A DNA stretch of 64,000 nucleotides, taken from Octopus vulgaris (taxonomy: Eukaryota). The DNA lies in contig OX597818.1 in NCBI GenBank assembly GCA_951406725.2, positions 54,436,001-54,500,000 on the forward strand, read 5' to 3'. Under the pieces are notes generated by a model, which was not told the origin of the DNA, did not search any database, and saw nothing but the letters and a program-made list of their open reading frames with translations. A program made the translations under genes and the position numbers. Positions 5,613-64,000 of the stretch are shown one piece after another. Position 1 is the first letter of the stretch. Every line of letters starts with the position of its first letter.

Positions 5613-6503
5613 TTATGTTAAAGGAAGCTTTTTCCTGTAAAAGTATAATTCTTTTGTTAACATGCTGACTATGGAAGGAACTTGTTTCATTCCATTCATC
5701 TCTGAACCCCCAGCATTAGACTCATATTCATAGGCAACCCTACGATTTACCGAAAGCATTAAGTGTTGCAGTTCAAGTTGGGGTCCGTCTTTTTCCAAAA
5801 TGTGGGCTAACGACTGAATAAATCACGATCCATTAGTGGAACTTCTCCAGGAGTAAAATCCAGGGACAGTGGAATAAGCCAGAAGAATGTCGGCCCAAAC
5901 TGGTACTTTGTGAGGTGTGACTTTTTTATATATGTCTCTAGCATCGACGCTAGCTGCATCGAGCACATCTACACCGCTGTCCATTTTTGTTCCACGACAA
6001 GCTTGTATGAAGAATAGTTTTGGCTTACCTATTAAGCTCGGACATCTCTCACGAAGCAGCATCTCTACTAAAGTATCCAGCTTTACTTTGCCATCAGTGC
6101 CATAAATCTGATTATCGTCTTCACCGTGGGTCAATATAACACAAACGAAGCAGTTATACTTCGTATAGTCCATCCTGGATATATCCGTAAAGATATGCGT
6201 CATCGCATTCACTGATAAATTCTTGCGGTCGAACACCTTAAAATGCAATGACTTCAAAGTTTTTTTTAATTGCTGTTGCATCTCTGTCGGATCCTTGTCG
6301 TTTAGACATTTTAGTCGATTTTTCAAACTTTTCGTTATTTATTATTAAAGCCAGGTTCTCTTTGTTACGATCCATGTCATATCTGGCATTTACAGATTCG
6401 CTATTTTCTTCATGAGACACCATTTCAACATCTTGAGGTTGTGAATCGGGATCTCTCTCTTTAAAAATATACCTTCAACACGTTGTGCATCTACGTAGTC
6501 CAT
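5613..6503 (-). pseudogene. Effector caspase (caspase-3/7-like) copy A, intronless, disrupted
   Basis: ATG at 6503 (MDYVDAQRVEG). Pieces 6238-6423, 5823-6326 and 5613-5798 carry LIINN, ILTHG, FFIQACRG, YSWR and KQVP motifs. Lesions versus copy C: -1 nt in a T-run (~6463-6467), +1 nt in an A-run (6260-6267) and TGG->TGA at 5823-5825. The C-terminus extends to YRKKLPLT. Confidence 0.93.
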
Positions 6504-13865: not shown

Positions 13866-14733
13866 TTACTTGTAAAAGTGTAGTTCTTTTGTTAACATGC
13901 TCACTATGGAAGGAACTTGTTTCATTTTATTCATAGACGAATGGCTGGCATTAGACTCATATTCACAGGCAACCCTACGATTTACTGAAAGCATTAATTG
14001 TTGCAGTTCAAGTCGGTCTCCGTCCTTTTCCAAAATGTGGGCTAACCACTGAATAAACCACGATCCATTAGTGGAATTCCTCCAGGAGTAAAATCCAGGG
14101 ACAGTGGAATAAGCCAGAAGAACGTCGGCCCAAAGTGGTACTTTGAGAGGTGTGACATTTTGATATTCGTCTCTAAAAGCTTGAGCATCGTGCATAATTA
14201 CACCTCTGTCCAGTTTCGTTCCCCGACAGGCTTGTATGAAATATAGTTTTGGCTTACCTATTAAACCTGGGCATCTATCAGGAAGCAACATCTGCACTAA
14301 CTCGTTAAGATTTAGTTTGCCATCAGTGCCATAAATCTGGTTATCGTCTTCACCGTGAGTTAATATAACACAAACGAAGCAATTATACTTCGCATGCTCC
14401 CTCTTGGATATTTCCGTGAAGATTTGCCTCATATCACTCACTGACTAATTCTTGCGGTTCGATCACCTCAAAATGCAATGACTTCAAAGTTTTTTTAATT
14501 GCTGATGCATCTCTGTCGGATCCTTGTCGTTTAGACATTTTAGTCGATTCGTCGAAACTTTCATTGTTGATTATTAAAGCCAGGTTTTCTTTTTTACGAT
14601 CCATGTCATATCTGGTATTTACAGATTCGCTATTTTTTGCAACAGACTCCATTTCAACATCTTGAGGTTGTGAATCGGGATCTCTCTCTTTAAAAAATAT
14701 ACCTTCAACACTTTGTGCATCTACGTAGTCCAT
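13866..14733 (-). pseudogene. Effector caspase copy B, intronless, frameshifted; palindromic partner of copy C
   Basis: ORFs 14434-14733 and 13866-14441 are colinear with copy C. There is a +1 nt insertion at ~14456-14459 and an in-frame TAG at 14445-14447. THG, QACRG and YSWR are intact. Confidence 0.92.
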
Positions 14734-16185: not shown

Positions 16186-16268
<83 letters not shown>

Positions 16269-16391: not shown

Positions 16392-16431
<40 letters not shown>

Positions 16432-16559: not shown

Positions 16560-16619
16560 CTCTGTATTGAATCAATTTCGGAATTAATCTTATAAAGGAT
16601 ACATTCTTCGTCAGTAGAG
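16560..16619 (-). ncRNA. Hammerhead motif, partly decayed
   Basis: Minus strand reads ctcta-CTGACGA-agaat...attcc-GAAA-ttgattcaa-TA-cagag, with A.C mismatches at the first pair of stems I and II. Confidence 0.62.
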
Positions 16620-17394: not shown

Positions 17395-17430
<36 letters not shown>

Positions 17431-17601
17431 GCATATATATGAAATGGTGTACATTAAAATCTTCATCACCCTGATGTTATTAATATATATACATATATGT
17501 ATATATGTGTGTATATATATCTATGTATGTATAACTATGTATGTAGGTTTGTATATAGGTATGAGCGTAAGTATGTATGTGTGTGTGTTTGTATGAGTTT
17601 C

Positions 17602-17651
<50 letters not shown>

Positions 17652-18189
17652 CGTGCGTGTGTGTGTATTCGTGTTCAAATGTACATCTGCGAGGCTAGAC
17701 GCATTGAACAAAAAGCTCGCAATATAATATGTCGTTTTGTAAGAAATATCTTTTTGTTATTTCTTCCTTGTAAATTACAAAGAAAATTTTTCTGTCATCG
17801 GCGTCGTCCTAATTGTAGTTCATTTTTCATTGGTTCATTTTTAACCAGTAATTTTGAAGCATAACATCTTTTACAAGTAAGATGATAACGTTCACACAAT
17901 ATATAAAATAAATATGACGCGGAAGTTGCCGTGTGCTGAATGACTTTTGTAGAATCACGTCCATAGTCAGTGAAATTGACAGCGGAGTGTCCTTATTATT
18001 ATCAAGTTGTATGGGTACATTTTGTGAAAGTATCAACTTATATCAGTCCCCCAGAACATCACTTGGTTCTGGAGGTGGTCCTTACGTCCTGCAGTAATTT
18101 TGGGACCTGTACTTTTGTGATCCTTTCTAAAAATTCAGGGAACAATCCGATGGTGCCCATCTGGAAGTTATAATTTTCTTCCGGGTTTT

Positions 18190-18460
18190 GTTTGAGGTGG
18201 CGCAGGAACTGGTTGACTTCGGTCCGGGTCTCAAATTCGTCACAGTGGCGCGTGAGAGGCATGAAGTGGAGTCCCTTACTGAGGAGAGAGCGCTCGACAG
18301 CGGAGAGGGGGAGATTGGGGGGTATATTGACAACAGTGCCAGGAAGCAAGGTGGTGGGATGAGTGGGGTCAGGAAGAAGGGGTGCAGAGGTGTGGGGAGG
18401 AGAGTTGGAATAGTTGGGTGAAGATGGGGTAGGCGTAGGAAGGTCAGTGTGGGGTGTGTA
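18190..18460 (-). mobile_element. Penelope-like 5' fragment (mirror of 39000-39266)
   Basis: VVNIPPNLPLSAVERSLLSKGLHF matches the 39107 ORF; fused to a Tc1 fragment at ~18190. Confidence 0.85.
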
Positions 18461-21164
18461 AATTTACAACATAAAATGTACGAAAAACTACACTTGCAAA
18501 ACAATGTGACAACAGAAATGAACGGACCGGTACCCTACGAAAATGACGACCGTCAAAATAATGGGCCGGGCGTTGTTCCTCATGTCCCGCAAATAAAACC
18601 CAAAAGACATAAATGGACACGTGAGGAATACATTTCTATCCTACACGCTTACTTTACAGCAGTGCTCTACCCAAAGAATGAAAATACAACAACACATACA
18701 TACAAAATATAGAAGAAAAATAACATAAATAAAGACCTGAATACAACAATGAACCCTAATAAACTAGCAAATATACGGAGATATATTCTCAACGCAAAAA
18801 AATATCAGAAATAGAAATAGAACATTTAAAAGAAAAATTACATCAGGAAAATGTAGATAGAAGCCACACAACAATGCCAAATAATATAAACATTGAAACA
18901 GTAAAACACGAAGACAAACGTAACATTTCCAACAAAAACGATGTAAACAACAAAAAAAACCAAAACAAACCCAGACCGTAAGGATACATAATAATACACG
19001 ACAAACAGCAAGCCAAAACACAACAAACAAACATACGGATGAGATAGAAAGCGACACAAATCTAAAACCTGGAAACAACAAAGGGGAGCCTAATGATTAT
19101 GAAACTATAAAAAGTAGAATAATCAAAGAACTGAAAACCACAGAGCTCAAAATGGACCACCGACCATACCTCCCAAAAATTAAAATAGACAAAACAACAA
19201 CATCAATTATAAACAACATATACCTAGCCGTCACGGAACTAATAGCCACTGAACCAAAAAGCGATATCACTGAGCTAAATGACTTAGTATATGCAGTAGC
19301 CACTGCAGCCACAAAAGAACCTGGATACTCACTCAAACCCATCCAAACAGGAGTACCACCACCCAAACAAACCCTGTGGATAAATAACATCCAAACCAAA
19401 ATACAAAAAATGAGAAAAGATCTGTTGATTCTTAATGAAATCAGTAGACAATCAACGCTACTGAGCAACAAAAAGAAAACAAAAATACTCCGAAAATACA
19501 ACACCACAGAAAAAGATTCACCCGAGATAAAAGAAAAGCTGAAGCAAGATATCCTTGCCAAAGCACAAAGGATCCGCCGGTACGAGAAACGCCAACGTTT
19601 CTTTGAACAAAACAAACAGTTCAACTCCAACCCCCAAAAGTTCTACCAAGAACTTGGCAAAAATAAAATAGAAATCACTGCAGCACCAACGGCAGAATTA
19701 GTGGAAGAATTCTGGAGAGAAATATGGTCGGCGAACGAACAACGAAAAAAAAGGAGTATTAAAACAACAAACTCAGCATCTGAGCAACTCTGGACCCCCA
19801 TAACAACTGAAGAGGTCACCCAGGCACTGCAAAGACTAAGCAACTGGAAGGCACCTGGGCATGACAAGATCCCCAACTTCTGTTTGAAATATCTAACAGG
19901 AATGCACAAAAAGCTGGCTGAAAACTTTAACAACATTCTGACAGAGCCAGAGACAATGCCTGAATGGCTCACGAAGGGGAAAACCATCTTAATTCCCAAA
20001 TCAAACGAGACAGCAAAACCAGAAAACTACAGACCAATAACCTGTCTCCCTACAACGTATAAAGCATTTACTGCTGTAATATCGCAAAGATTGAACAAGC
20101 ACCTGGACGAAAACAACCTGTTCCCAGAAGAGCAGAAAGGATGCCGCAAAGGCTCATATGGCTGTAAAGATCAACTAATGATCAATAAAGCCATAACTGA
20201 AGACAGCCACAGAAGGTAGAAAGGCCTCAGTATGGCCTGGATCGACTACAAAAAGGCGTTTGATAGCATCCCCCACACATGGATCCTCGAAACACTAGCC
20301 ATGAATAAAGTTGCACCAACAATTATAAAGTACATAGGACACTCTATGAATAAATGGTAAACAGTGCTACAGCTCCAAACAAAAGAGGGACTTGTGAAAA
20401 CCAAAACCATCCCCATTAGAAGAGGAATATTCCAGGGAGATACGCTCTCTCCACTCCTTTTCTGCTTGGCACTGTCACCTCTATCGGATATGCTAAACAG
20501 AACTGGATGCGGATATAAATGTTACGGCAAAAAGATCAGCCGTCTTTTGTATATGGATGACCTAAAACTTTATGCTACAAATGACAAACAGCTGGAAACA
20601 CTACTAAAGACAGTTCATGGATTTACCAAAGAAATAGATATGAAATTTGGATTAGAGAAATGCGCCAAAGTAACCCTGAAAAGAGGAAAACTAATTAAGA
20701 GTAGCAACATCACACTAGATAAAACCAATGAAATAAAAGAATTAGACCAAAGCCAAACTTACAAATACTTAGGAATCCATGAACTAGATAAGACACAACA
20801 CACACAAATGAAAGAGAAAATAAAAAGAATATTATAGACGAGTTAGATCAATACTAAAAACAGAGCTCAATGCTAAGAACAAGATAATAGGTATTAACAC
20901 TTTAGCGGTCCCACTTATAAGTTACAGCTACAATATCCTTAACTGGACACTAAATGAACTGACCTAAATAGATAGGAAAACAAGAGAAATAATGACATGA
21001 TCTAGGATGCATCACCCAAAATCTACTAGGCACTGCACACATCCTACGCAGAACACTTTCCATACAATAACCGTCAGAGCATCACAACAAATCACAGCAC
21101 ATACCCAAGGCACACAGAGCTGCCCTCGGTAGTGAATTGAAGGCACGATATAAAAAATATACTA

Positions 21165-21167
<3 letters not shown>
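18460..21167 (+). mobile_element. R4/Dong-clade non-LTR retrotransposon, degenerate, C-terminal deletion
   Basis: N-terminal KRHKWTREE motif. RT motifs KAPGHDKI, YRPITCL, EEQKGC, DYKKAFDS, GIFQGD and YMDDLKL. The junction HHPKS|LGTAHILRR removes the ZnF/endonuclease region. The 3' end runs into (TAA)n. Confidence 0.9.
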
Positions 21168-21189
<22 letters not shown>

Positions 21190-21195
<6 letters not shown>

Positions 21196-24050
21196 TAAAA
21201 ATTAAATAATACGGCGATTATCTAACAAAGGGATTGGAATTTTTGTGATATAATTATTAAATAACTAGTAGATATAATTAGTATAATAAAAGGAAAGTGG
21301 TATATTTATTACTAAAAATGTAGAAAATAAAAGATTGTAAAAGCAGAGAGAAAATAATACTAACAAACAGAAACTAAATACAAGTACTGAGAGAGAAAGT
21401 ATATGAAATACAGGGATTGATAAGAACGAGAAATACTAACAATATTAAATTTAGTGGATGGAAATTCATGCAAAAAACCAAGTCTAGAAATAATGCAAGG
21501 GAGAGAACAATCGATAAATTATTATTATTATCTCCCTTCATCTGTGCATTGATTTTGAAAACTCTTGTAGCATCTCAAAATGCAGATCACCACCACTTTG
21601 CAGTTTACTTTTAAGTAAATATTTAAGAAATTCATAAAAAGTATGGAGTACAATGAGAATAATATTAGTATAAATAAAGAAGACAGTTGTCTCATAGGAA
21701 AAGAAAGATTTATTAAGATATTAGGCGCAGGAGTGGCTGTGTGGTAAGTAGCTTGCTAACCAACCACATGGTTCCGGGTTCAGTCCCACTGCGTGGCATC
21801 TTGGGCAAGTGTCTTCTGCTATAGCCCCGGGCCGACCAATGCCTTGTGAGTGGATTTGGTAGACGGAAACTGAAAGAAGCCTGTCGTATATATGTATATA
21901 TATATATGTGTTTCTTTGTGTGTCTGTATTTGTTCCCCTAGCATTGCTTGACAACCGATGCTGGTGTGTTTACGTCCCCGTCACTTAGCGGTTCGGCAAA
22001 AAAGAGACCGATAGAATAAGTACTGGGCTTACAAAGAATAAGTCCCGGGGTCGAGTTGCTCGATTAAAGGCGGTGCTCCAGCATGGCCAGAGTCAAATGA
22101 CTGAAACAAGTAAAAGAGAAAAGAGAAAGAGATATTAGGAAATAATTATTACATAATTTTGGTATAAGAAAAGGAAGATCATATATTTATCCTTTATAGA
22201 GACAGAGTTTCCGAAATATAAAGCTGGATATCCTGGGAGGGAGCCACTCAATTAGAGCGAGCCCAATACGCAACTGATACTTAATATATCACTCCAGAAA
22301 GGATGAAAGGCAAAGTCGACCTCGGCGCAGTTTGAACTTGGAACGTAGCGGCAGACAAAATACCTATTTCTTTACTACCCACAAGGGGCTAAACACAGAG
22401 GGGACAAACAAGGACAGACACACGGATTAAGTCGATTACATCGACCCCAGTGCGTAACTGGTACTTATTTAATCGACCCCAATTGGATGGAAGGCACAGT
22501 CGACCTCGGCGGAATTTGAACTCAGAACGTAACGGCAGACGAAATACGGCGTGCTAACGATTCTGCCAGCTCGCCGCCTTAATAGGGCTGGATATCAACA
22601 ATAAAAATATGAACAACATTAAAAAACAAAAAAAAAAAGGTGGTGCTCCAGCATGGCCGCAGTCAAATGACTGAAACAAGTAAAAGAGAATGTAAAAGAG
22701 AATAGGTTCAAATATATAAGTAAATAGAGAAAAGATAGTAATATAGGATAAGATTAGTATAATTCAGTATTGTAGAATGGGATAGATTAAAGTATATGCC
22801 GTAAATAATCGGAAAAAAAATATTGATATGCAATCATTAAAATATTGTTTAAAATACATAATTATAGTTATAATACAGGTAGATACGCTAAAAATTACTT
22901 TTATACCTAAATATCTTATAAACATTGTTAGTATTTCAATATGTTCAAAGTATGAATTGTTTTATTGAAGATGATGCAATTGACAATAAAAATAGTTAAA
23001 TATTATTACATGGAGTATAAATGATTATTATTAGTGAAGAAGGGAAATAACAATAAAGCTATCATTTGTATTTATGCAGACATGAAAATCACTCATTTAT
23101 GAATAAATGAATTTATTCATAAATTTATTTATTTATTTATAGATAACATAAAATAATATATATATTATAAAATAAATTACGCGTATATGTTTTAATTTAT
23201 GAAACAATCTATTGTGATATTTGAATTTTTCTATGGTTAAGTAAATTTCTCCATACTAATTTTCTCGTCATTTATAAATTCACACACATACTCACACACA
23301 CACAAACACACACACGCACGAACGAACGCAGACACATACACACACACACGCATGCATACTGATGCACTAATATATCTGCATATGTGTACATTTGCATTCT
23401 CGTATTTTGAACGATGTACATAGATGCCATACTTGGGTATGTGTATGTATGTATGTATGTATGTATGTATGTATGTCAGGTCACTTTCGAGTGCTACTGG
23501 TAACATGTATTTACTTATATATTTGAACCTATAATCATTAATTTCAAGTTGTTCATATTCTTCTTGATGATATCCAGCTGATATCCAGCGCTATATTTTG
23601 GAAATTCTGTCTCTATAAAGGATTACAATATGATTTTCTTTTTCTTATACCAAAATTATGTAACAATTATTTCCTAATCTATTAATAAATCCCCCTTCTC
23701 CTCTTAGAAAACCCTCTTATTAATTTATATTCATATTATTCTCATTGTACTCCATACTTTTTATGAATTTCTTAAATATTTACTTATATTTTCATGACTA
23801 AAATTTAATATATATCATATTTCTCTTGTTGGTATCCATCCCTGTATTTCGTAAACATTGTCTCTAAATACATTTATTTGGTTTCAGTTTGTTAGTATTA
23901 ACGTTTATTTTCTACAGTTTTAGTAATAAATATACCACTTTCCTTTTTTTATACTAATTATATCTACTAGTTATTTCATAATTATATCACAAAAATTCTC
24001 TTCCGTTTTTATAGATAATCGTATTATTTTATATTAATTTTATTATTATT
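21190..24050. repeat. AT-rich element with long diverged inverted repeats (foldback-like); mirror at ~33390-36380
   Basis: 21200-21720, 22135-22230 and 22588-22727 together are the reverse complement of 23505-24040; the left repeat is interrupted by SINEs. Confidence 0.75.
21724..22130 (+). mobile_element. tRNA-derived SINE (Octopus-type); mirror at 35442-35849 (-)
   Basis: A box (gtggctgtgtggtaag) and B box (ggttcagtccc), internal (TA)n, and tail ...gtcaaatgactgaaacaagtaaaagag. Confidence 0.85.
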
Positions 24051-24276
24051 ATCTTCCACAACTTCTAACGTTCTGTTTAAAGATTAACTTTGCGATTTTG
24101 GAACTTGATGTCGAGACATTAATATGTAACAAAGATTTTAAAAATTTTACCTGAGGATGTAGTTTACAATCAATCAACCATCTATCCATCCATCCATCCA
24201 CCTATCCATCTATCAATCTGTCTCTTTTAATACTTTGCATGTACCCTGTCTTCGCGTTGTTGTTTCTTTTTCTTGT

Positions 24277-25516: not shown

Positions 25517-26942
25517 AAATGGCAAACAGTGCTACAGCTCCAAACAAAAGAGGGACTCATGAAAACCAAAGCCATCCCCATTAGAAGAGGAATATTCCAG
25601 GGAGACACGCTCTCTCCACTCCTTTTCTGCTTGGCACTGTAACCTCTATCTCATATAATAATGACAGAATCTAGGATACATCACCCAAAATCTGACGTAG
25701 ATAGACTATATATACAACGTATAGAAGGTGGTAGAGGCCTTATACAGCTGGAAAACTACTATAAAATAACCACCATAGGACTGCAAAAATATCTACTTCA
25801 GAAGGAAGGAAAACTGATACAAATAGCGGCAAAACACGAGCAAAACAAAAAACTGTTCTCAGTATTTAAGGAAGCTGACAAATACAAACAAGAAATCATA
25901 CCACCTAATAAATATGAAGAAGAAGAAGAAGAAGAAGAAGAAGAAGAAGAAGAAGAAGAAGAAGAAGAAGAAGAAGAAGAAGAAGAAGAAGAAGAAGAAG
26001 AAGAAGAAGAAAAAACAAAAGCTATAAAACAAATGAAATCCAAACTGAAAATAGAACAGCAACGAACCGTGATAAAACGATGGCAAGAAAAGCCTCTTCA
26101 TGGTAAATACTGGACTAAACTAAACGCAAAAGAAATAGACAAAGAAAAATCCCAGCAATGGTTGAAAAGCTCAGGACTCAAAGCAGAGACAGAGGGATTT
26201 TTTATTGCAGCACAAGACCAAAGCCTCCCCACCAGAAATTACCAAAAACATGTAATGAAAAGAAATATAACGAGTAACTGCAGAATATGTGGAGATGGAC
26301 AAGAAACTATAAATCATATTATCTCTGGCTGCCCAGTCCTGGCTAAGAAGGAATATATTCACAGACATGACAGAGTTGGAACCTACATACATTGGAAGCT
26401 ATGCCAACATTATGGAATAACAACAGAAAAAAGATGGTATAGGCTCACACCAGAAAGGGTCACAGAAAACGAGAAAGCAACCATATTCTGTGATATAACG
26501 ATACACACAAGTAGAGAAATTAAGGCCAACAGACAAGATATAGTTGTCCGAGATCATGAAGAAAAAAAATGCTTTCTAATTGATGTATCAATACCGGCAG
26601 ATGACAATGTGTCTCTAAAAGAAATGGAGAAACTTTCAAAATACAAAGACCTGGAAATAGAGGTAACCAGAATGTGGAATCTAAAAACAGAAACAATCCC
26701 TATCATAGTAGGTGCATTAGGCATGATTAAAAAATATTCAGACAAATACATAACAAAAACACCAGGACTTACAAACACATATAACATACAGAAAATTGCA
26801 CTACTAGGCACTGCACACATCCTACGCAGAACACTTTCCATACAATAACCATCAGAGCAGCACAACAAATCACAGCACATACCCAAGGCACACAGAGCTG
26901 CGCTCGGTAGTGAAGTGAAAGCACGCTATAAAAATAAAACTA

Positions 26943-27739: not shown

Positions 27740-30700
27740 TAATATACGCACACTAACTAACGCATATATACGTATAAATACATATATGCGGACACACATA
27801 TAAATATTAATAAAATAAAGAGAAAAAGATTATAAGTCCTGAGTGGTTCTCTCCCCTTGTGAGAAATTCTCCCATCATTCTATTTCTTATTAATCTCACT
27901 CGCTTCGGAAGCATCCGTAGGTGGAAGTACTAACAGTCGCCTGTCGAAATTCTCACGTGTGTGTTATACGATGCTAGAATTCTGAATGCTACTAATGGCA
28001 ATGTACCATGGCGAAATGAAACATATAGGAAATTGATCCCTCCTAAGTCATCTTGACGTGGAAATACGAAAAGAGTCCTGGAATTCAAACCCGAGAAAAA
28101 CGCAGTGAGGCATGTATGTAGTTTGTAGAGAAAACGGTAATCGAGCTTACACGAAGAACTATAAAACAAGGTGAATAAGTACTGGAAAGAATGAGAGGAA
28201 TAAAATAAGATCCTCCAAAGACTCACAGGATGAAATCTTGAACAGTTAAGAGATTTTCCCTCTTTCTTTCATTCAATCTCTTTGACTCTTTGTCTCTCCT
28301 CTACTGGACCAAAAACAGAAAATATAGATTGCTCTTGCGTATAACGTAAATTTAATTTTAAATTACTCTGAGGATTTCATTGCCTTACCTCTGTCTCTTC
28401 ACTTTTTGTTTCCACTGTAAAGAGAGAAAAACAACAACAAAAAAAAAGACAAAGAAGAGAAGAAGATCGATCGCATATAGTTCCTAAAATGTTTTAAATG
28501 AATATAGACCAACTAGTTTCATAATCCCGGGTTACGTTGCATCGATATGCTCCAATGAGAGCGAAATAACGTTATATGCAGGTACAAGGACACCCAAAAT
28601 GGGAAAAAAATTAAAAAAACTATTTTTAAGGAAATATTATTTCATGTTCACTAAATCATAGGAAAATGCTATCACTCTATAATAATGAGGCAAAAAGATT
28701 AAAAATGAAAAAAGAGTGTAAGTCCTGAGCGGTTCTCTCTCTTGGAGGGAAAATTTTTCCTCCTTTCTATTTCGCAAACTCTCTTTCTCTACGTGTTACT
28801 GCTCCAACGGTCGCCGAACAGACTGTTTAGCTCGTTATCGTCAAAGTCTAGAGTTTCCCCGAGAACTTCGTCGCATTTTTCTTCCACGAATCCTCTATAA
28901 AACGTTAGAGTGGAACTACTACCGATCGCATTGCCCGCTTGGCGGAGGGCTGAGAGAGCTTGACGGCACTCGAGGTGCCAAGCGCCCTTTCTCGGTTTGC
29001 ATTTGATCCAAGATTGCAGCTCTGTCAAAGAGACGAACTGCGGAAAGTCGCGTCTGAAAAAAGACGACCACACCTGTTCACCGTCTAGGAAACGCTTGAG
29101 ATGCCGTAGCCTGAGCGTATGTCTGCGCATCAGTAAACAAGGCATGCCAAGGCCTCCGTTCATCGGCCGTTGACAGCAGATGGAGCGCCTGGCCAGTGGT
29201 ACTCGACCCTTTCACAAAAAGTTGAAGAGCAAACGCACCAGCGAGATGTCGAACGGCTCCGAGCAGAGTGATGGGCCTAAAGTTCCCTATAACGTCCACC
29301 TTGTTTGTGTCCTTTCTCAGCAAAGCCACCACTCCTCGACAAACAAAAGCAGGAATTCTCCCGTTTTGTTGTCAGTTGCAGTAGACGTTTGCCAAGAGGC
29401 CCGCAAACAAGTCTGGCATTGAAGTGTAAAGCTCGTAGGGCAGAACATCCAAACCCGGCGATCTGCCTCTCGTGCAGCTCTTCATTGCTTCCTCCACTTC
29501 CCAGGCAGATATCGGTCTTTCGCAGCACTCCACCTCGCTGTCCGAGAGTTGCGGTAGGCCGTCCAGGTACACACTGAAGTATGTCCCGTTGTCCGTCCCA
29601 AACAGTTGAGCAAACACCGCACACATCTGCTTTGGCTCGGAAACCTCGCACCCGTTCTGGTCCACCAAAGACCGAATGGTCGCTTTGTTGCCGCGCTTCG
29701 CCTCCGCCACGCGGGCCCATCGAGCGGCCTTAGTTCCCTCCCCGCTTAGCGAACGTGCCTTAGCTCTGACAACGCAGCCTTCGTGTTTGGCGTCAAAGTG
29801 TTGGTCGAGGGCCAACCTTGCCGCCAATACGTCGGTTGCAATGCCTGTCTCAAGAGCCTCGTCTAGTTTTCTAACTAAATCCCGCTCTGTTTTCCTACGT
29901 TCTACTGCTTGAGCTTTAATAAACCTAATCGATTCTGCTCTAATTGTTCTCTTGAGAGCAAACCACCAGTTGCTGTTGATGACTGTCCCCGTGAGAGCCC
30001 GTTTAACTAATAAAATAATCCGGTCTCTGTAGGCTTTGCACGCCGTTAACGATGCGTTCAGCTTCCAGTAGCCAGGACCCTGTCTATGTAGCCAATATAA
30101 GTCGATTGTACAGATCACGAATTTGTGGTCCGTGTAGTCGACTAGGTGGAATTGTGGACACCTTATGCTGTCCTTATCCGCTGGCCTACAGAAAGTACGA
30201 TCTAGACGATCCGATGCGATTAGTCCAAGTCCACATTGGCACATTCGAGTTGTCCAGTCGAAACCTGCCGGACAGCTGAAAGCGCCTGAGCAGGTTGGCG
30301 AGGCTCTTGCACCCCTCTCTCCCATCAGATGCTCCCGTGCCCACCCGATCGAAACGTTCGTCTAAGACAGCGTTCCAATCCCCAACTAGCACTAGAGTGC
30401 GTGACGTTCCCAAGAAAACCTCCAAACGTTTGAAATAATCGGACTGCCCTGCCCCTGTCGGAGCGTAGGCAGCCAGCAGTCTGAAAACACCGCCGTCACT
30501 ACCGTCAACGTCGAGGACCACCAACTTACTTTCTGGATCCAGGAAGACCGTCTTTATTTTCAAATCAAGGCACTTCCGAAACAACACCGCAGTACCACCA
30601 CCGCCCGCTTCCGACCGACACGGAGATAGAAAAATCTCGTATCCGCCGAAAAGGGCTGCGAGTTACCGCGGGTCAGAGAGCCTGGTTTCGCTAATGGCTG

Positions 30701-36453: not shown

Positions 36454-38998
36454 TAGTATATTATTTATATCGTGCTTTCACTTCACTACCGAGCGCAGCT
36501 CTGTGTGCCTTGGGTATGTGCTGTGATTTGTCGTGATGCTCTGACGGTTATTGCATAGAAAGTGTTCTGCGTAAGATGTGTGCAGTGCCTAGTAGATTTT
36601 GGGTGATGCATCCTAGATCCTGTCATTATTTTTCTTGTTTTCCTATCTATTTTGGTCAGTTCATTTCGTGTCCAGTTAAGGATATTGTAGCTGTAACATA
36701 TAACTGGGACAGCTAAAGTGTTAATACCTATTATCTTGTTTTTAGCATTGAGCTCTGTTTTTAGTATTGATCTAACTCGTCTATAATATTCTTTTTTATT
36801 TTCTCTTTCATTTGTGTGTGTTGTGTCTTATCTAGTTCATGGATACCTAAGTATTTGTAAGTTCGGCTTTGGTCTAATTCTTTTATTTCATTGGTTTTAT
36901 CTAGTGTGATGTTGCTACTCTTAATTAGTCTTCCTCTTTTCAGGGTTACTTTGGCGCATTTCTCTAATCCAAATTTCATATCTATTTCTTTGGTAAATCC
37001 ATGAACTGTCTTTAGTAGTGTTTCCAGCAGTTTGTCATTTGTAGCGTAAAGTTTTAGGTCATCCATATACAAAAGACGGCTGATCTTTTTGCCGTAACAT
37101 TTATATCCGCATCCAGTTCTGTTTAGCATATCCGATAGAGGTGACAGTGCCAAGCAGAAAAGGAGTGGAGAGAGCGTATCTCCCTGGAATATTCCTCTTC
37201 TAATGGGGATGGTTTTGGTTTTCACAAGTCCCTCTTTTGTTTGGAGCTGTAGCACTGTTTGCCATTTATTCATAGAGTGTCCTCTGTACTTTATAATTAT
37301 TGGTGCAACTTTGTTCATGGCTAGTGTTTCGAGGATCCATGTGTGGGGGATGCTATCAAACGCCTTTTTGTAGTCGATCCAGGCCATACTGAGGCCTTTC
37401 TACCTTCTGTGGCTGTCTTCAGTTATGGCTTTATTGATCATTAGTTGATCTTTACAGCCATATGAGCCTTTGCGGCATCCTTTCTGCTCTTCTGGGAACA
37501 GGTTGTTTTCGTCCAGGTGCTTGTTCAATCTTTGCGATATTACTGCAGTAAATGCTTTGTACGTTGTAGGGAGACAGGTTATTGGTCTGTAGTTTTCTGG
37601 TTTTGCTGTCTCGTTTGATTTGGGAATTAAGATGGTTTTCCCCTTCGTGAGCCATTCAGGCATAGTCTCTGGCTCTGTCAGAATGTTGTTAAAGTTTTCA
37701 GCCAGCTTTTTGTTCATTCCTGTTAGATATTTCAACCAGAAGTTGGGGATCTTGTCATGCCCAGGTGCCTTCCAGTTGCTTAGTCTTTGCAGTGCCTGGG
37801 TGACCTCTTCAGTTGTTATGGGGGTCCAAAGTTGCTCAGATGCTGAGTTTGTTGTTTTAATACTCCTTTTTTTTTTTTGGTTGTTCGTTCGCCGACCATA
37901 TTTCTCTCTTGCTTCAGCTTTTCTTTTATCTCGGGTAAATCTTTTTCTGTGGTGTTGTATTTTCGGAGTATTTTTGTTTTCTTTTTCTTGCTCAGTAGCG
38001 TTGATTGTCTACTGATTTCATTAAGAATCGACAGATCTTTTCTCATTTTTTGTATTTTGTTTTGGATGTTATTTATCCACAGGGTTTGTTTGGGTGGTGG
38101 TACTCCTGTTTGGATGGGTTTGAGTGAGTATCCAGCTTCTTTTGTGGCTGCAGTGGCTGCTGCGTATACTAAGTCATTTAGCTCAGTGATATCGCTTTTT
38201 GGTTCAGTGGCTATTAGTTCCGTGACGGCTAGGTTTATGTTGTTTATAATTGATGTTGTTGTTTTGTCTATTTTAATTTTTGGGAGGTATGGTCGGTGGT
38301 CCATTTTGAGCTCTGTGGTTTTCAGTTCTTTGATTATTCTACTTTTTATATGATCATAATCATTAGGCTCTCCTTTGTTGTTTCCAGGTTTTAGATTTGT
38401 GTCGCTTTCTATCTCATCCGTATGTTTGATTGTTGTGTTTTGGCTTGCTGTTTGTCGTGTATTATTATGTATCCTTACGGTCTGGGTTTGTTTTGGTTTT
38501 TTTTTGTTGTTTACATCGTTTTTGTTGGAAATGTTACGTTTGTCTTCGTGTTTTACTGTTTCAGTGTTTATATTATTTGGCATTGTTGTGTGGCTTCTAT
38601 CTACATTTTCCTGATGTATTTTTTCTTTTAAATGTTCTATTTCTATTTCTGATATTTTTTGCGTTGAGAATATATCTCCGTATATTTGCTAGTTTATTAG
38701 GGTTCATTGTTGTATCCAGGTCTTTATTTATGTTATTTTTCTTCCATATTTTGTATGTATGTGTTGTTGTATTTTCATTCTTTGGGTAGAGCACTGCTGT
38801 AAAGTAAGCGTGTAGGATAGAAATGTATTCCTCACGTGTCCATTTATGTCTTTTGGGTTTAATTTGCGGGACATGAGGAACAACGTCCGGCCCAATATTT
38901 TGACAGTCGTTATTTTCGAAGGGTACCGGTCCGTTCATTTCTGTTGTCACATTGTTTTGCACGTGTAGTTTTTCGTACATTTTATGTTGTAAATTTAC
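36451..38998 (-). mobile_element. R4/Dong-clade LINE, mirror copy
   Basis: ORFs 38597-39007, 37816-38583, 37400-37735 and 36761-37387. It has the same C-terminal deletion as the left copy, plus a private ~170 bp deletion near 37905. Confidence 0.9.
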
Positions 38999-38999
38999 A

Positions 39000-41900
39000 C
39001 ACCCCACACTGACCTTCCTACGCCTACCCCATCTTCACCCAACTATTCCAAATCTCCTCCCCACACCTCTGCACCCCTTCTTCCTGACCCCACTCATCCC
39101 ACCACCTTGCTTCCTCTCACTGTTGTCACTATACCCCCCAATCTCCCCCTCTCCGCTGTCGAGCGCTCTCTCCTCAGTAAGGAACTCCGCTTCACACCTC
39201 TCACGCGCCACTGTGGCGAATTTGAGACCCGGACCGAAGTCAACCAGTTCCTGCGCCGCCTCAAACTTTGCGCGTTTTCCCACGCGTCCCCACATCGTCA
39301 CGACAATCAGGATTGCTTTTTGGAGCTGGGTCGCCGCCCATCCAACTGGACGCCACCCCCAGGCCAATTCAGTAGCCTAGATTTGTTCGTGAACGACTGC
39401 AATGCGTTGGTCAACCAATTCAACTTCAAAAAAGACCTCTCCGAGACAACCTCACTCGGGCTGAATCGATTGCCCTTCGCAACCTCCGTCGCCGCAATGA
39501 CATTGTCATCAAACCGGCAGACAAAGGCGGAGCAGTGGTGGTGTGGCGAGCGTACCTATACAGGGAAGAAGCGCTCAGCCATGTTCAAAATCCCCTCTTC
39601 TATCGCCTACTCCCCTCCAATCCTACCTCCTCCTACCAACAGCGAGTGTCCTCCACCATCCACGACCTCATCTCCTCTTCTGCTTTCCAACCCACCGTCA
39701 CCAACCTTATCGTCCGTACACCCCGAAGCTCTACCATCTATTTCCTTCCCAAAATTCATAAACCCAATAACCCTGGCCACGCCATCGTTTCCACCTGTAA
39801 TTGTCCCACCGAACGCATTTCCCTATACCTCGACCGCATTCTGTCTCTGCCCTCCCATCTCACATACATGACACTAACCACGCCCTTCGTCTCTTCAATT
39901 CCTTTTCCTTCCCTCCCAGCCCCTCACACCTCCTCTTTACCTTAGACATCAAATCCCTTTACACTGTGATTCCCCACAACGACGGTTTCTTAGCCCTCCA
40001 ATACTTCCTCGACCGTCGAAGCGACCCCTACCCCAGCACCCCACCCTTCTCCGCTTAGCAGAGCTCGTCCTCACCCTCAATTGCTTTACGTTCGCCGGGG
40101 AAATGTACGAACAGTGTCTGGGGTCGCGATGGGAATGAGAATGGTCCCCAATTTTGCCAATCTCTTTGTTGGCTACATTGAGGCCCAAGCATTCTCCCAA
40201 TTCTCCGAGCCGACCGCAGAGCTATACGGTCGCTACATAGACGACTGCATAGGCGCCACATCCCTCTCCCGCGAACAACTCTGCCACTTCATCTCTTTCC
40301 TCTCTAACTTCCACCAATTCTCTCCAATTCACTTCTACCATCTCTTAATACCTCTGTTAACTTCCTTGACATCTCTCTTAGCATCGACCACCCATCCCAC
40401 TCTCTCACCAACTCCTCCTTCTTCATACCCACGGATTCCCACCTCTATCTCAACTTCTCCTCCTCCCATCCCTTCCACACCAAACAGGCCATCCCCTACT
40501 CCCAGTTCCTCCGCCTTCGACGCTTGTGCAGCCGCGACCAGTATTTTGAGACTCAGTCTCAGTACCGGGCACGCCTGTTCAGGCATCGAGGATACCCCCC
40601 AACCCTGGCCTTGAACGCCCTTACCCGCTCTCGCCGAATCGACCGCACCACCGCCCTTTCTCACTCCTCTCACCAACCCACTAACCGCACCCCCTTTCCC
40701 CTCCTTTCCACCCCTCCACTCTACCCTTTCGTCGGAGGATACTACGTGCCTTCCGTCGTCTCCAGCTCGATCCCACGACCCGCCTCATTTTCCCCGACCC
40801 ACACTCGTCATCCTTCAAACGAGCCCGGAATCTACGCGATCTCCTGGTCCGTAGCACCCTCTCCTCTTCCCCCTCAGCCCCACATGGATCCTTCCCGTTC
40901 TCCAGATACCACTGCAACACCTGCCCCTTCATCACCAACACCACTGCTGTCACCGGCTCCAACCAGCGAACTGTACGCATTAGACATTCTTTTACGTGCA
41001 CTTCGTCTGGCCTCATCTATTGCATAAAATGCAACCTCTGCTTTATGCAGGACAGACGGGCCGCCGACTGGCCGACCGGTTCGCCGAACATCTAAGGGAT
41101 GATCGGCTGCGTACCAATTCTCCCGTCGCCCGTCACTTGTGCTCGGCCAACAATTTCCCCGGTGACATCTCTGTGTTTGATCTCGCCCCACACAACGGAC
41201 CTCCACAATCCAGGCTTCACTTGGAGCAACGGTTTATTTTCACTTTTACAGACTAATACCACGCACGGACTCAACACAGCCCCCTCCTCTTAGTGACTGC
41301 GTCTCCACCTCCCGCAACAAGCAACTTTATTTCTTATTTCTTATCTCTTCCTTCTTTTCTTTTTTTCTTATTTTCTTTTCTTTGTCTTTTTTTCATTTTC
41401 TTTCCTCACGTGCTATTACGTCTTTTATTTTATTATTTTATTGTTTTATAATTTTTTTGTTTTCTTAGTGTTTAAATTTTTTATTATTTTATTATTTTTA
41501 TAAATTATTGTTCTTATACACAAACACATACACACACATACTCACGTATCCACGAACACACACACATCTCTAACACACCACACACATACAACATACATGC
41601 ACATATACGCACACATACTTCCACACACATACACACACGCATACATACACAAATACACACACCCACACACACCCACGCGCACACACACATATGGCCATGT
41701 ACACACACATATGCCCGTGCACACACACACATATGCCCGTGCACACACACACGTACACAAACGTACACACACGCAAAGAATGCACAGAAACCTATCCCAT
41801 CCAACCCCATGCACACACAGACACGCATACCTTTAGACACACACACATAGCCACATACACGCACATACTCAAGCACACGCGCGTACACACAATCAAATGA

Positions 41901-47595: not shown

Positions 47596-47606
47596 CATTT
47601 ATATAT

Positions 47607-48080
47607 ACGGGTTGGACAAAATAATGGAAACACCGGGCATCATAGCATCATAATATTTAAATATCTATAAAACCCGTCAAAGCTTGATTATTTTTATGCT
47701 TTGTGATTTGTTATTAGTGTTGCTTAATATGTTTTAATAAAATTGCTGTTTCTTTTCAGGTATCATCAGAAAAAGGTAATTAAAATTTATTGCAATGACA
47801 GATCTCTCGGACTTTGAAACAGGTCAAAATTGTCGGTGCTCGGATGGCAGGTGCTAGTGTAACGGAAAAAGCCGAAATGTTTGGTGTATCAAGAAGTAGT
47901 GTCTCGAAAGTAAGAGGGAAAACCTCCTCCTCGAAACAAAACCCGGAAGAAAATTATAACTTCCAGATGGGCACCATTGGATTGTTCCCTGAATTTTTAG
48001 AAAGGATCACAAAAGAAAAGGTCCCAAAATTACTGCAGGACGTAAGGACCACCTCCAGAACCAAGTGATGTTCTGGGGGA
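47607..48080 (+). mobile_element. Tc1/mariner left end with transposase N-terminus (also 59165-59638 - and fragment 18045-18193 -)
   Basis: TA + gggttggacaaaataatggaaacacc TIR; MTDLSDFE..IVGARMAGASVTEKAEMFGVSRSSVSKV HTH-type N-terminus. Confidence 0.8.
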
Positions 48081-48484
48081 CTGATGTAAGTTGATACTTT
48101 AACAAAATGTACCCATACAACTTGATAATAAAAAGGACACTCCACTGAACGTCAATTTCACTGACTATGGACGTATTTCTACAAAAGTCATTCAACACAT
48201 GACAACTTCTGCGTCTTATTTATTTTATATATTGTGTGAACATTATCATGTTATTTGTAAGAGATGTTATGCTTCAAAATTACTGGTTAAAAATGAACCA
48301 ATGAAAAATGAACTACAATTAGGACGACGCCGATGACAGAAAAGTTTTCTTTGTAATTTACAAGGAAGAAATAACAAAAAGATATTTCTTACAAAACGAC
48401 ATAATTTTATTGCGAGCTTTTTGTTCAATGCGTCTAGCCTCGCAGCTCTACATTTGAACACGAATACACACACACGCACGCACG

Positions 48485-49174: not shown

Positions 49175-49781
49175 GTTCAGTTTCGTTATATGACTGGACA
49201 AAAACCTAGCAATGATTTTATATCGTTTTCTCAGAAAATATTTGTGTTATTTCTTTCTTGGAAATTGCATAGACAGCTTCTTTGTCATCTCTCATTGGTT
49301 CATACGTAACCATGATTATTGAAGCATAACATATAACACAGATAATATCATATATATAGCATAGAAAATAAATAAGACACAGAAGTTGTCTTGCGTTGAG
49401 TGACTATTGTAGAATCACGCCCATCGTCAGTGAAATTGACGCTCAGCGGACTGTCTTTTTATTATCAAGTTCTATGTGGACATTTGCTTAATTATCAACT
49501 GATCTCAGCATTTGAATATTGATTAAACCCAGGAGTACGTTCATCAAACTACATCTTTTATCCTACAAATTCTTATCTTATATTAATTAATACTTTTTTG
49601 AATAATCGCATGTGTTATCCGCACCATCAGGATCAAATTAACCGCTATTTCTGAGCTGAACAAAGGGAAAAAACCGAGGTAATATATCGTTATTTTCCGT
49701 TCCTCAAATTTTGCAACAATATTTCACGGCTTAAAGTTGTACTGCTACATTTCGGCTGCTTTATAGATATTCCGCTCAACC
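49175..49781 (+). promoter_or_regulatory. Conserved ~600 bp caspase upstream region (also 6504-7110 -, 14734-15340 -, 62790-63395 +)
   Basis: Near-identical non-repetitive sequence precedes all four ATGs. It ends ...gctgctttatag|atattccgctcaaccATG, a possible splice acceptor 15 nt before the ATG. Function is inferred only. Confidence 0.45.
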
Positions 49782-50648
49782 ATGGACTACGTAGATGCAC
49801 AACGTGTTGAAGGTATATTTTTTAATGAGAGAGTTCCCGATTCACAACCTCAAGATGTTGAAATGGAGTCTGTTGCAAAAAATAGCGAATCTGTAAATAC
49901 CAGATATGACATGGATCGTAAAAAAGAAAACCTGGCTTTAATAATCAACAACGAAAGTTTCGACGAATCGACTGAAATGTCTAAACGACAAGGATCCGAC
50001 AGAGATGCATCAGCAATTAAAAAAACTTTGAAGTCATTGCATTTTGAGGTGGTCGAACGCAAGAATTTGTCAGTGAGTGATATGAGGCAAATCTTCACGG
50101 AAATATCCAAGAGGGAGCATGCGAAGTATAATTGCTTCGTTTGTGTTATATTAACTCACGGTGAAGACGATAACCAGATTTATGGCACTGATGGCAAACT
50201 AAATCTTAACGAGTTAGTGCAGATGTTGCTTCCTGATTCATGCCCAGGTTTAATAGGTAAGCCAAAACTATATTTCATACAAGCCTGTCGGGGAACGAAA
50301 CTGGACAGAGGTGTAATTATGCACGATGCTCAAGCTTTTAGAGACGAATATCAAAATGTCACACCTCTCAAAGTACCACTTTGGGCCGACGTTCTTCTGG
50401 CTTATTCCACTGTCCCTGGATTTTACTCCTGGAAGAATTCCACTAATGGATCGTGGTTTATTCAGTCGTTAGCCCACATTTTGGAAAGAGACGGAGACAA
50501 ACTTGAACTGCAACAATTAATGCTTTCAGTAAATCGTAGGGTTGCCTGTGAATATGAGTCTAATGCCAGCCATTCGTTTATGAATAGAATGAAACAAGTT
50601 CCTTCCATAGTAAGCATGTTAACAAAAGAACTACACTTTTACAAGTAA
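49782..50648 (+). CDS. Effector caspase (caspase-3/7-like, peptidase C14A) copy C, 288 aa, single-exon CDS
   Basis: Uninterrupted ORF with Kozak-like caaccATGG. Catalytic His126 (ILTHG) and Cys169 (QACRG) are present. It has p20 and p10 motifs (LIINN, KPKLYFIQAC, DVLLAYSTVPG, GSWFIQSL, KQVP) and a short prodomain with no CARD or DED. Confidence 0.96.
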   Translation: MDYVDAQRVEGIFFNERVPDSQPQDVEMESVAKNSESVNTRYDMDRKKENLALIINNESFDESTEMSKRQGSDRDASAIKKTLKSLHFEVVERKNLSVSDMRQIFTEISKREHAKYNCFVCVILTHGEDDNQIYGTDGKLNLNELVQMLLPDSCPGLIGKPKLYFIQACRGTKLDRGVIMHDAQAFRDEYQNVTPLKVPLWADVLLAYSTVPGFYSWKNSTNGSWFIQSLAHILERDGDKLELQQLMLSVNRRVACEYESNASHSFMNRMKQVPSIVSMLTKELHFYK

Positions 50649-58761: not shown

Positions 58762-59652
58762 CGTGCGTGTGTGTGTGTGTATTCGTGTTCAAATGTACAT
58801 CTGCGAGGCAGGACGCATTGAACAAAAAGCTCGCAATAAAATTATGTCGATTTGTAAGAAATATCTTTTTTTTATTTCTTCCGTGTAAATTACAAAGAAA
58901 ACTTTTCTGTCATCGGCGTCGTCCTAATTGTAGTTCATTTTTCATTGGTTCATTTTTAACCAGTAATTTTGAAGCATAACATCTCTTACAAATAACATGA
59001 TAATGTTTACACAATATATAAAATAAATAAGACGCAGAAGTTGCCATGTGTTGAATGACTTTTGTAGAATCACGTCCATAGTCAGTGAAATTGACGTTCA
59101 GTGGAGTGTCCTTTTTATTATCAAGTTGTATGGAAACATTTTATTAAAGTATCAACTTATATCAGTCCCCCAGAACATCACTTGGTTCTGGAGGTGGTCC
59201 TTACGTCCTGCAGTAATTTTGGGAACTGTACTCCTGTGATCCTCTCTAAATATTCGCGGAACAATACGATGGTGCCCATCTGGAAGTTATAATTTTCTTC
59301 CGGGTTTTGTTTCGATGAGGAGGTTTTCCCTCTTACTTTCGGGACACTAATTTTTGATACACCAAACATTTCGGCTTTTTCCGTTACACTAGCACCTGCC
59401 ATCCGAGCACCGACAATTTTGACCTGTTTCAAAGTCCGAGAGATCTGTCATTGCAATAAATTTTAATTACCTTTTTCTGATGATACCTGAAAAGAAACAG
59501 CAATTTTATTAAAACATATTAAGCAACACTAATAACAAATCACAAAGCATAAAAATAATCAAGCTTTGACGGTTTTATAGATATTTCAAAATTATGATGC
59601 TATGATGCCAGGGGTTTCCATTATTTTGTCCAACCCCTATATATAAATAAAT

Positions 59653-61915: not shown

Positions 61916-63395
61916 TTTTGCATCCGATTATTTATGGTCAAGTACTTGCTATTGCATAGCAATATCGCAATTGAGTATTATGTATGGAGGTGGGTAAATT
62001 AGGAATTTACCCAGGATTTATACGGCAAATAAGATAATGGAGGGGATATACAATCGAAAGACATCAACCAACACCCATCTTTTATTATTCATTCGTTTCT
62101 ATATTTTATATATATGTGTGTTTGTATATATATATGTTTATGCAGTTATTTACTGTTTCCATTCGTTAATTTGTATCCCTCTTGCATATGTGTGTAATAA
62201 TTTAATAAATAGACATAATTGAATGTTTGCTGATTGATGTCTGTTGATTGTATATCCTCTTCATTTTCTTTTTTGCCGTATATATATATATATAAAATGA
62301 AATACACATTGTGTACAGGGCATCACCATCGAGTGAAAAATACGTAAACATACGAGAGAAAAATAGAAAATAGCAAAAGAAGATAACTCCACATCTGTTG
62401 TCGGTCTGTTTATTAATCCTGTTTCATGCTTTTAACGATAACGTAGGAAACCTTCATAAAACATAAGCAGCATCCTGAAATTTGTGGAGAGTCAGAGCTT
62501 CGAACGAACGAACGAACGAATACAGAGTGGACGTGCAGAGTAGACAAACGACGGAGACAGACATTAAGGGTCGTTAGGCCAACACGAATTGCAATGAGCA
62601 ACGCTTGAGATGTATATGTGTATGTGTGTGTGTGTGCCCCCGTGTGTGTTTGTGTGTGTGTTTGTGTGCGTGCGTGCGTGCGTGTGTATGTTATGTATGT
62701 ACATATCTATATAAAGAGTTAAGTATGAGTGTGTGTGTGTGTGTGTGTCTGTGTGTGTGTGTGTGAGTGAGAGTGTGTGTATGTGTGTGTGTTCAGTTTC
62801 GTTATATGACTGGACAAAAACCTAGCAATAACTTCATATCGTTTTCTCAGAAAATATTTGTGTTATTTCTTTCTTGGAAATTGCATAGAAAACTTCCTTG
62901 TCATCTCTCATTGGTTCATACGTAACCATGATTATTGAAGCATAACATATGACACAGATAATATCATATATATAGCATAGAAAATAAATAAGACGCAGAA
63001 GTAGTCTTGCGTTGAGTGACTATTGTAGAATCACGCCCATCGTCAGTGAAATTGACGCTCAGCGGACTGTCTTTTTATTATCAAGTTCTATGTGGACATT
63101 TGCTTAATTATCAACTGATCTCAGCATTTAAATATTGATTTAACCCAGGAGTACGTTCATCAAACTACATCTTTTATCCTACAAATTCTTATCTTATATT
63201 AATTAATATTTTTTGAATAATCGCTTGTGTTATCCGCCACATCAGGATCAATTTAACCGCTATTTCTGAGCTGAACAAAGGGAAAAACCGAGGTAATATA
63301 TCGTTATTTTCCGTTCCTCAAATTTTGCAACAATATTTCACGGCTTAAAGTTGTACTGCTACATTTCGGCTGCTTTATAGATATTCCGCTCAACC

Positions 63396-64000
63396 ATGGA
63401 CTACGTAGATGCACAACATGTTGAAGGTATATATTTTAAAGAGAAAGATCTCGATTCACAACCTAAAGATGTTGAAATGGTGTCTGTTAAAGAAAATAGC
63501 GAATCTATAAATGCCAGATATGACATGGATCGTAACAAAGAGAATCTGGCTTTAATAATCAACAATGAAAGTTTCGACGAATCGACAGGAATGCCTGAAC
63601 GACAAGGATCCGATGAAGACGCATCAAAAATTAAAAAATCTTTGAAGTCATTGCATTTTGAGGTGATCGACCACAATAATTTATCAGTGAAAGAGATGAC
63701 GCAAATCTTCACGGATATATCCAGGATGGACCTTGCGAAGTATAACTGCTTCGTTTGTGTTATATTGACCCACGGTGAAGACGATAACCAGATTTATGGC
63801 ACTGATGGAAAAGTAAATCTGGATACTTTAGTGGAGATGTTGCTTCCCAATAGATGCCCAGGTTTAATAGGTAAGCCAAAACTATTCTTCATACAAGCTT
63901 GTCGGGTAAAAAAAATGGACAGCGGTAAAGATGTGGTCGATGCAGCTAGAGAAACACATGAAAAAGTCACATCTCACAAACTACCAGTTTGGGCCGACTT
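63396..64000 (+). CDS. Effector caspase copy D, partial (runs off the window end)
   Basis: Hand translation from ATG 63396 is open to the window end: MDYVDAQHVEGIYFKEKD...LALIINN...ILTHGEDD...KPKLFFIQACRVKKMDSGKDVVDAARETHEKVTSHKLPVWAD. It is missing from the ORF track because no stop lies in the window. Confidence 0.93.
   Translation, partial: MDYVDAQHVEGIYFKEKDLDSQPKDVEMVSVKENSESINARYDMDRNKENLALIINNESFDESTGMPERQGSDEDASKIKKSLKSLHFEVIDHNNLSVKEMTQIFTDISRMDLAKYNCFVCVILTHGEDDNQIYGTDGKVNLDTLVEMLLPNRCPGLIGKPKLFFIQACRVKKMDSGKDVVDAARETHEKVTSHKLPVWAD

Follow-up and report, generated by a model that had tools for sequence, protein, structure and literature searches.

The linker between the catalytic subunits of human procaspase-6 is reported to be cut by caspase-3 at DVVD179 (PMC5849602). 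This DVVD occupies the position of the IETD of caspase-3, and coral caspases that prefer DxxD substrates are described as cutting procaspase-6 and not procaspase-3 (PMC7586219). In the coral caspases themselves, the P4 residue was demonstrated to decide cross-cleavage (PMC7586219). Two linker classes occur there, DVTD in PaCasp7a/OfCasp3a and VESD in PaCasp3/OfCasp3b. On the enzyme side, Asn at the S4 position is reported to mark DxxD-preferring caspases, while Glu at that position, as in caspase-6, gives a preference for VxxD (PMC6874516). A preference for Asp at P4 is also attributed to the initiator caspase-2, which needs a P5 residue and has VDVAD as its canonical peptide; VDVAD-type peptides are bound by caspase-3 too (PMC9666555).

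Caspase-9 is reported to be absent from molluscs, with caspase-2 as its suspected stand-in (PMC10959488). An account of bivalves agrees on this absence (PMC7836458), and a squid study names an EsCasp9 (PMC9389742). Octopus effector caspases already figure in the tree of a study that also tabulates linker lengths in a supplement, and the expansion of the cluster considered here appears to be at least partly on record (PMC11543851). A search of the literature outside most subscription journals turned up no publication that treats the linkers of the octopus genes in this cluster.

The window analyzed here is a 64,000-nucleotide stretch of Octopus vulgaris contig OX597818.1 (assembly GCA_951406725.2, positions 54,436,001 to 54,500,000, forward strand), and coordinates below count from its first letter. 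It holds four copies of one single-exon, caspase-3/7-like CDS, here called A, B, C and D. A sequence-only reading of this stretch had proposed that B and C, with a hydrophobic P4 residue in the linker, are activated by initiators, and that A and D, with DxxD, are activated by effectors or by themselves, giving a two-tier cascade within one cluster. We lean, by no great distance, towards a different explanation, in which the DxxD side branch is a short-lived, eroding variant in a birth-and-death cluster and not a stable second tier.

Caspase copies in the window

Copy C (49782..50648, plus strand) is an intact CDS of 288 aa, corresponding to protein P0001. Its single Pfam family is Peptidase_C14 (PF00656, E 1.3e-61, residues 50-284 of 288); the prodomain is short, and the Pfam search found neither a CARD nor a DED. 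Across the 60 best PDB sequences listed, the closest solved structures are caspase-3 and -7. A shorter-protein homologue search gave nine matches, none of them close (38-51% identity). The linker of C reads I-M-H-D/A from P4 to P1' (50316..50330, with the IMHD codons at 50316-50327; a slash marks the predicted cut) and belongs to the dominant class of the cluster.

Copy B (13866..14733, minus strand) is an inverted duplicate of C with the same linker, GVIMHD/AQAFRDEY (IMHD codons 14187-14198, minus strand). As assembled it is disrupted by a +1 frameshift and a TTG to TAG change near 14445-14463 (about codons 93-96). B and C are 97.9% identical (dS 0.02) and count as one observation, because they are the two arms of a single large inverted duplication. 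This duplication pairs about 7900-24200 with 33300-55600 at mostly 94-98% identity around a spacer of ~9 kb, and both arms also carry retrotransposon-like pieces beside B and C. The stretch between the two copies is filled by non-LTR retrotransposon-like ORF fragments (18924-20837, 25643-26848, 28789-30662 and 36761-41027), called by eye as reverse transcriptase- or endonuclease-like.

Copy A (5613..6503, minus strand) has a double linker site, D-V-L-D/A followed by A-S-V-D/A (5940..5969; DVLD 5958-5969, ASVD 5943-5954), within the sequence GVDVLD/AASVD/ARDIY. Its lesions, as assembled, are a -1 change in a T run near 6459-6473, a +1 change in an A run near 6259-6273, TGG to TGA at 5823-5825 (the Trp214 equivalent) and loss of the normal stop. 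The A-type linker is found as a loose contig end in sequencing runs X1 and X2. A may be less broken than assembled: its two frameshifts offset each other as indels in homopolymers, and the contigs of the runs that have the A linker list no deletion of 1 nt at the T run. The latter gives a weak hint that the T-run frameshift is an assembly error, since contigs cannot prove the deletion absent.

Copy D begins at 63396 on the plus strand and runs off the window at 64000; its full ORF of 286 aa is protein P0013. The linker, GKDVVD/AARETH (D-V-V-D/A at 63930..63944, DVVD 63930-63941), has the tetrapeptide of human caspase-6 DVVD179 at the same position. The catalytic pentapeptide is QACRV (63894..63908), with Val for a conserved Gly. 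The region 63380-64000 was compared with contigs of 4 public runs out of 24 listed. Run X2, guessed to be RNA, has a contig equal to 63877-64000 with zero differences at depth 107.7, spanning both QACRV and DVVD, and a second contig matching 63764-63879 at depth 142.5; D-identical contigs in this run thus lie at depths of 108-143, and paralogue contigs there at ~80-350. Run X6, also guessed to be RNA, has an identical 258-nt 5' piece of D at depth 2.4 with the linker uncovered. Run X8, likewise guessed to be RNA and from a second organism, has an identical 88-nt piece of D, and its linker bin is covered too. The combination of QACRV and DVVD in D is genuine. An assembly artefact, in which two compensating homopolymer errors produced QACRV, was rejected because the X2 contig matches without difference. 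A spliced exon upstream of the D start, considered because of a loose contig end in run X2, was not established.

Residue numbers here are those of caspase-3, transferred through an alignment to C. The His/Cys dyad (THG and QACxG motifs) is found in all four copies, with QACRG in A, B and C. D has the whole S1 triad Arg64/Gln161/Arg207, as do A and B when read through; in C the third position is Lys. Judging by the motif, we take this triad to be the counterpart of caspase-7 Arg87/Gln184/Arg233, which is described in PMC4357240. The codon for this Lys is AAG (50433..50435, plus strand, as assembled), at a position where B and most relatives have Arg in a YSWR motif. As assembled, every copy in the window thus departs from an intact, canonical gene: A and B by their lesions, C by the Lys in place of the S1 Arg, and D by QACRV. 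The Asn208 equivalent, the S4 signature of group II (DxxD-preferring) caspases, is present in B, C, D and the full-length copy P0140 from outside the window, and in 27/37 octopod proteins overall; A has Ser.

Counting database proteins (clustered at 90%, with look-ups of cluster members) together with the read-throughs of A and B, the tandem cluster has at least 16 copies, A and B included, a count that misses unannotated pseudogenes outside the window because it comes from protein databases. We infer that C (P0001) and D (P0013) belong to this Octopus vulgaris tandem cluster, their accessions being neighbors of named Octopus vulgaris caspase-3-like proteins. Turnover is seen throughout: besides B, the proteins P0021, P0022, P0023, P0025 and P0036 are truncated or degenerate.

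Linker types across octopods

The linkers were surveyed in 40 octopod rows, made up of 38 database proteins and the read-throughs of A and B; for four O. bimaculoides loci, a longer cluster member took the place of the shorter model, and one O. sinensis locus contributes three rows, which are named isoforms. In A, B, C and D alike, the P1 Asp lies 13 residues past the catalytic Cys, which places Ile at P4 in B and C, and Asp in A and D. The linker sequences given by the sequence-only reading are exact for all four copies. Its expectation of two conserved classes across the family was not borne out. At position +13, x-M-H-D is found in 32/40 rows (O. vulgaris 13/16, O. sinensis 8/12, O. bimaculoides 7/8, Argonauta 3/3 and one unnamed) and VMYD in one; two rows are degenerate, and five form a non-MHD group. 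DxxD at +13 is confined to 2/40 rows, A and D.

The five non-MHD members hold three linker forms. A has DVLD/A plus ASVD/A, D has DVVD/A, and both P0140 and the O. sinensis protein P0039 have DVLG followed by ASVD/A. The fifth member, P0034, has a frameshift right after QACRG, before the linker; its gene model is partial, as is that of P0039. The sole intact canonical member of the clade is P0140, a full-length protein that has both QACRG and YSWRN, yet it has lost the DxxD Asp and kept ASVD/A.

In a 38-row tree from which the linker columns were removed and the two degenerate rows left out, these five sequences still group together (93/62; inner four 100/97). The possibility that the clade is an artefact of the linker columns was ruled out in this way. 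The clade is confined to O. vulgaris and O. sinensis and is sister to the IMHD copy P0004; the position of A is weak in split trees (SH-aLRT 41-65).

Outside the octopods, DxxD at this site is not rare; it occurs in the relatives P0028 (DTTD) and P0035 (DVRD). Among 150 cluster representatives, DxxD at the first linker Asp was counted in 8/115 short linkers, or in 8/69 with a site found, no site having been called in 46/115. At the P0021/P0143 locus, the linker DVTD/G is an independent DxxD form in a truncated copy. P0021 and P0023, both from O. bimaculoides, end at GFYS, just before the Trp of YSWR.

Comparison with known caspases

The dominant octopus class resembles human caspase-3 and -7 in having a Peptidase_C14 domain, a short prodomain, QACRG, a YSWRN loop and one linker Asp with a hydrophobic P4. 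It differs in that the octopus genes are single-exon and arranged in tandem in at least 16 copies, many of them broken or altered in the substrate-binding loop, and in that x-MHD lies at +13 whereas IETD lies at +12.

Human caspase-6 (DVVD179 and TEVD193) is the nearest match to the side branch, as D has the same DVVD at the same linker position and A, too, has two linker Asp sites. However, the octopus proteins are caspase-3/7-like in sequence, with Asn (D) or Ser (A) at the S4 position where caspase-6 has Glu. The second site is at +18 from the catalytic Cys in octopus and at +30 in caspase-6, the octopus linker is much shorter, and the octopus DxxD state is young and unstable instead of fixed. 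Orthology to caspase-6 is not supported, A and D nesting within the octopod x-MHD cluster in trees that contained no caspase-6.

The coral caspases introduced above are likewise invertebrate caspase-3-like enzymes with either DxxD or hydrophobic-P4 linkers. As reported, the coral enzymes with DxxD linkers are initiators that carry a CARD and have a linker suited to their own specificity, whereas the octopus copies all have short prodomains; the coral classes are old and common to two species, whereas the octopus DxxD form is recent. The caspase-3/6/7 group of the bivalve C. gigas is similar to the octopus cluster in comprising lineage-specific, tandem effector caspases with altered pentapeptides and linker-based regulation (PMC11543851, PMC7836458). 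There, inhibitory linkers of 63-286 aa are described, in contrast to the short octopus linkers, which differ in the cleavage tetrapeptide.

Divergence, selection and gene conversion

The sequence-only reading had described the cores flanking the linkers as nearly constant. This holds for B against C, which are identical at 117/121 p20 positions, but not between the linker classes (A-C 93/121, C-D 96/121); the A-D value is 98/121. All of P4-P2 differ between the classes, as do 7/197 (A-C) and 10/196 (C-D) consecutive triplets within codons 1-200. The change from IMH to DVL comprises four base changes, all non-synonymous, in an otherwise strongly conserved motif. In the linker, no excess of dN over dS was significant (P 0.13-0.9), and positive selection on the linker was not supported in any pair or segment. 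The sole P below 0.05 came from the C-D prodomain (0.049, uncorrected, 1 of 22 tests). In codons 1-47, each pair among A, B, C and D differs by 3-14 replacement changes and by 0 synonymous ones.

Most of the divergence between A and D in codons 111-168 is synonymous (pS 0.22, pN 0.058), which argues that the A/D branch either experienced a period of purifying selection or received its sequence by conversion from functional genes. In their upstream non-coding DNA, the four copies differ from one another by 1.6-3.1%, against a core dS between the classes of 0.23-0.35. This likeness upstream suggests gene conversion, mosaic copies or a constrained regulatory region. It also restricts what the trees and dN/dS can tell.

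In the 580 nt 5' of each ATG (for example 49201-49781), 26 of 580 columns are variable, none of them among the last 100, and the first 600 nt of the CDS contain 114 variable columns among the four copies. The ATG is preceded, at a distance of 15 nt, by an AG with a pyrimidine-rich stretch ahead of it. A second repeat family, ~70% like the caspase upstream region, is found at about 7130-7500, 17670-18200, 47600-48470 and 58780-59650; no match to the caspase CDS follows any of these four repeats.

Catalytic state of D

The fifth position of the pentapeptide is Gly in 143/147 motifs from the 150 cluster representatives and Val in 0/147; Val is also found there in 0/93 non-octopod homologues. D retains Arg64, His121, Gln161, Cys163 and Arg207, that is, the catalytic and S1 residues. 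Activity of D once cut is in doubt, since Val replaces a conserved Gly two residues past the catalytic Cys. Loss of this Gly need not inactivate the enzyme, because an oyster caspase with QACRS is reported to be active and to cleave DEVD (PMC11543851). D is therefore of doubtful activity but not necessarily dead. Nothing usable on mutation of the pentapeptide Gly or the S1 Arg was found in the literature searched.

Origin and meaning of the DxxD linker

The simplest history of the side branch would be one gain followed by reciprocal loss of one site per descendant. An ancestral x-MHD/A would have changed once to DVLD/A together with the second site ASVD/A, a state kept in A. D may then have lost the second site by a 12-nt microhomology deletion, and P0140 and O. 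sinensis P0039 may have lost the first Asp. The linkers of A and D do differ by a 12-nt indel between two copies of GCTAG. The sequence-only reading had taken this as an insertion in A relative to D; the indel is real, but since P0140 and O. sinensis P0039 also have the long form, a loss in D is no less likely. Since each descendant keeps an Asp-Ala junction, selection appears to have favored a cleavable linker and not DxxD as such.

Because the DxxD branch likely replaced its linker once and is likely eroding now, A and D probably form no stable second tier. Their cleavage and that of their siblings can be predicted from the linkers: x-MHD/A would be cut by an initiator that prefers a hydrophobic P4, and the DVVD/A of D by DxxD-preferring proteases, whether its active siblings or an initiator of the caspase-2 type. 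Cleavage of D by siblings would be plausible, because most octopod proteins carry the Asn208 equivalent. The reading of an eroding variant is opposed by the full ORF of D, by the X2 contigs, by the synonymous-rich divergence of the A-D core and by the non-synonymous nature of the IMH to DVL changes. The chance that A is less broken than assembled and the activity reported for the oyster QACRS enzyme (PMC11543851) also count against it.

In the two-tier cascade, initiators would cut the x-MHD copies and these, as DxxD-ases, would cut D and any intact A alleles at DVVD or DVLD, which would make a caspase-6-like tier of independent origin. This arrangement is unlikely, even though it has a precedent: caspase-3 is reported to cut human procaspase-6 at DVVD in the same position (PMC5849602), and so are coral DxxD-ases, which leave IETD alone (PMC7586219). 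The sibling Asn and a core under purifying selection agree with it, as do the full ORF of D with its unaltered recurrence in run X2, the presence of the A linker in runs X1 and X2 and the cover of the D linker bin in X8. Against this, there is one dominant linker class and one unstable clade, with A disrupted, D carrying QACRV and the intact, canonical P0140 deprived of DxxD. The classes are moreover blurred by an overlapping DxxD three residues downstream in 17/33 x-MHD/VMYD rows, where P1' is bulky in 16 and Gly in P0143. A related proposal is a recent re-invention of caspase-6 wiring, with D and intact A alleles expressed, active despite QACRV and switched on by siblings, and with P0140, which has ASVD alone, wired otherwise. 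If true, it would reveal a cascade tier in the course of formation, but it too is unlikely. The DxxD copies are probably not all pseudogenes, because the ORF of D is complete and a second run shows its linker unaltered, though its motif is QACRV and the RNA status of that run is guessed.

A move of the whole branch from a caspase-8-like activator with hydrophobic-P4 preference to a caspase-2-like one is quite improbable. The VDVLD of A is close to the VDVAD of caspase-2 (PMC9666555), Val is at P5 in both A and P0039, and caspase-2 is the suspected substitute in molluscs that are reported to lack caspase-9 (PMC10959488). P5 is Lys in D and Gly in P0140, however, the P1 Asp is absent from P0039 and P0140, and VDVAD-type peptides are not exclusive to caspase-2, being bound by caspase-3 as well (PMC9666555). 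D could also be a pseudo-caspase with little or no activity, which through its effector-type site would serve as a decoy substrate or would pair with active siblings as a dimer and damp them. An intact ORF with QACRV, whose Val is unseen among the representative motifs, and its unaltered recurrence in a second run would suit such a role, and a catalytically dead caspase-6 variant has been tested as a dominant negative (PMC5849602). Retention of every catalytic and S1 residue, together with the reported tolerance of QACRS in oyster (PMC11543851), makes this very doubtful.

The sequence-only reading had also equated DxxD with activation by effectors, which does not stand, as the initiator caspase-2 is reported to prefer DxxD too (PMC9666555). 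Initiator and effector input cannot be read from P4 alone, because caspase-2 has this preference and molluscs are reported to lack caspase-9. Nor does P4 assign tiers, since the coral enzymes with DxxD linkers are the initiator-like ones as well. A cross-cleavage assay with the caspase-9 of the species, as had been suggested, would have no enzyme, given that reported absence.

In this cluster, nature has provided a series of short-prodomain caspases that are nearly identical but differ in linker design (four forms: x-MHD; DVLD plus ASVD; DVVD; ASVD only) and, in several cases, in the active site (QACRV; Lys, Glu or Thr in place of the S1 Arg). Should D prove to be active and activated by siblings, four base changes would be seen to suffice for a caspase-6-like tier, with a bearing on the origins of cascade hierarchies. 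If it is not, the branch is a case of ordinary gene birth and death. Either outcome warns against wiring initiators and effectors by P4 in molluscs, where caspase-2-like DxxD-ases may be initiators.

Other variation in the cluster

The S1 Arg is variable across the cluster, being replaced by Lys in C, by Glu in three proteins and by Thr in one. YSYEN, with Glu for this Arg, is common to one O. vulgaris and one O. sinensis copy, and the S4 Asn position is Arg in five proteins. Altogether, variants of the substrate-binding loop occur in C, P0010, P0022, P0025, P0020, P0011, P0014, P0015 and P0127. Judged by these alignments, specificity or activity may have diversified more in this loop than in the linker.

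At the N-terminus, all four copies in the window share M-D-Y-V-D/A, a putative DxxD site in the prodomain (49782..49799 in C, plus strand), and most octopod copies start with M-D-[YF]-x-D/A. Exposed N-terminal Ala ends bind IAP proteins in other caspases. The predicted cut in the octopus proteins would remove five residues and expose such an Ala.
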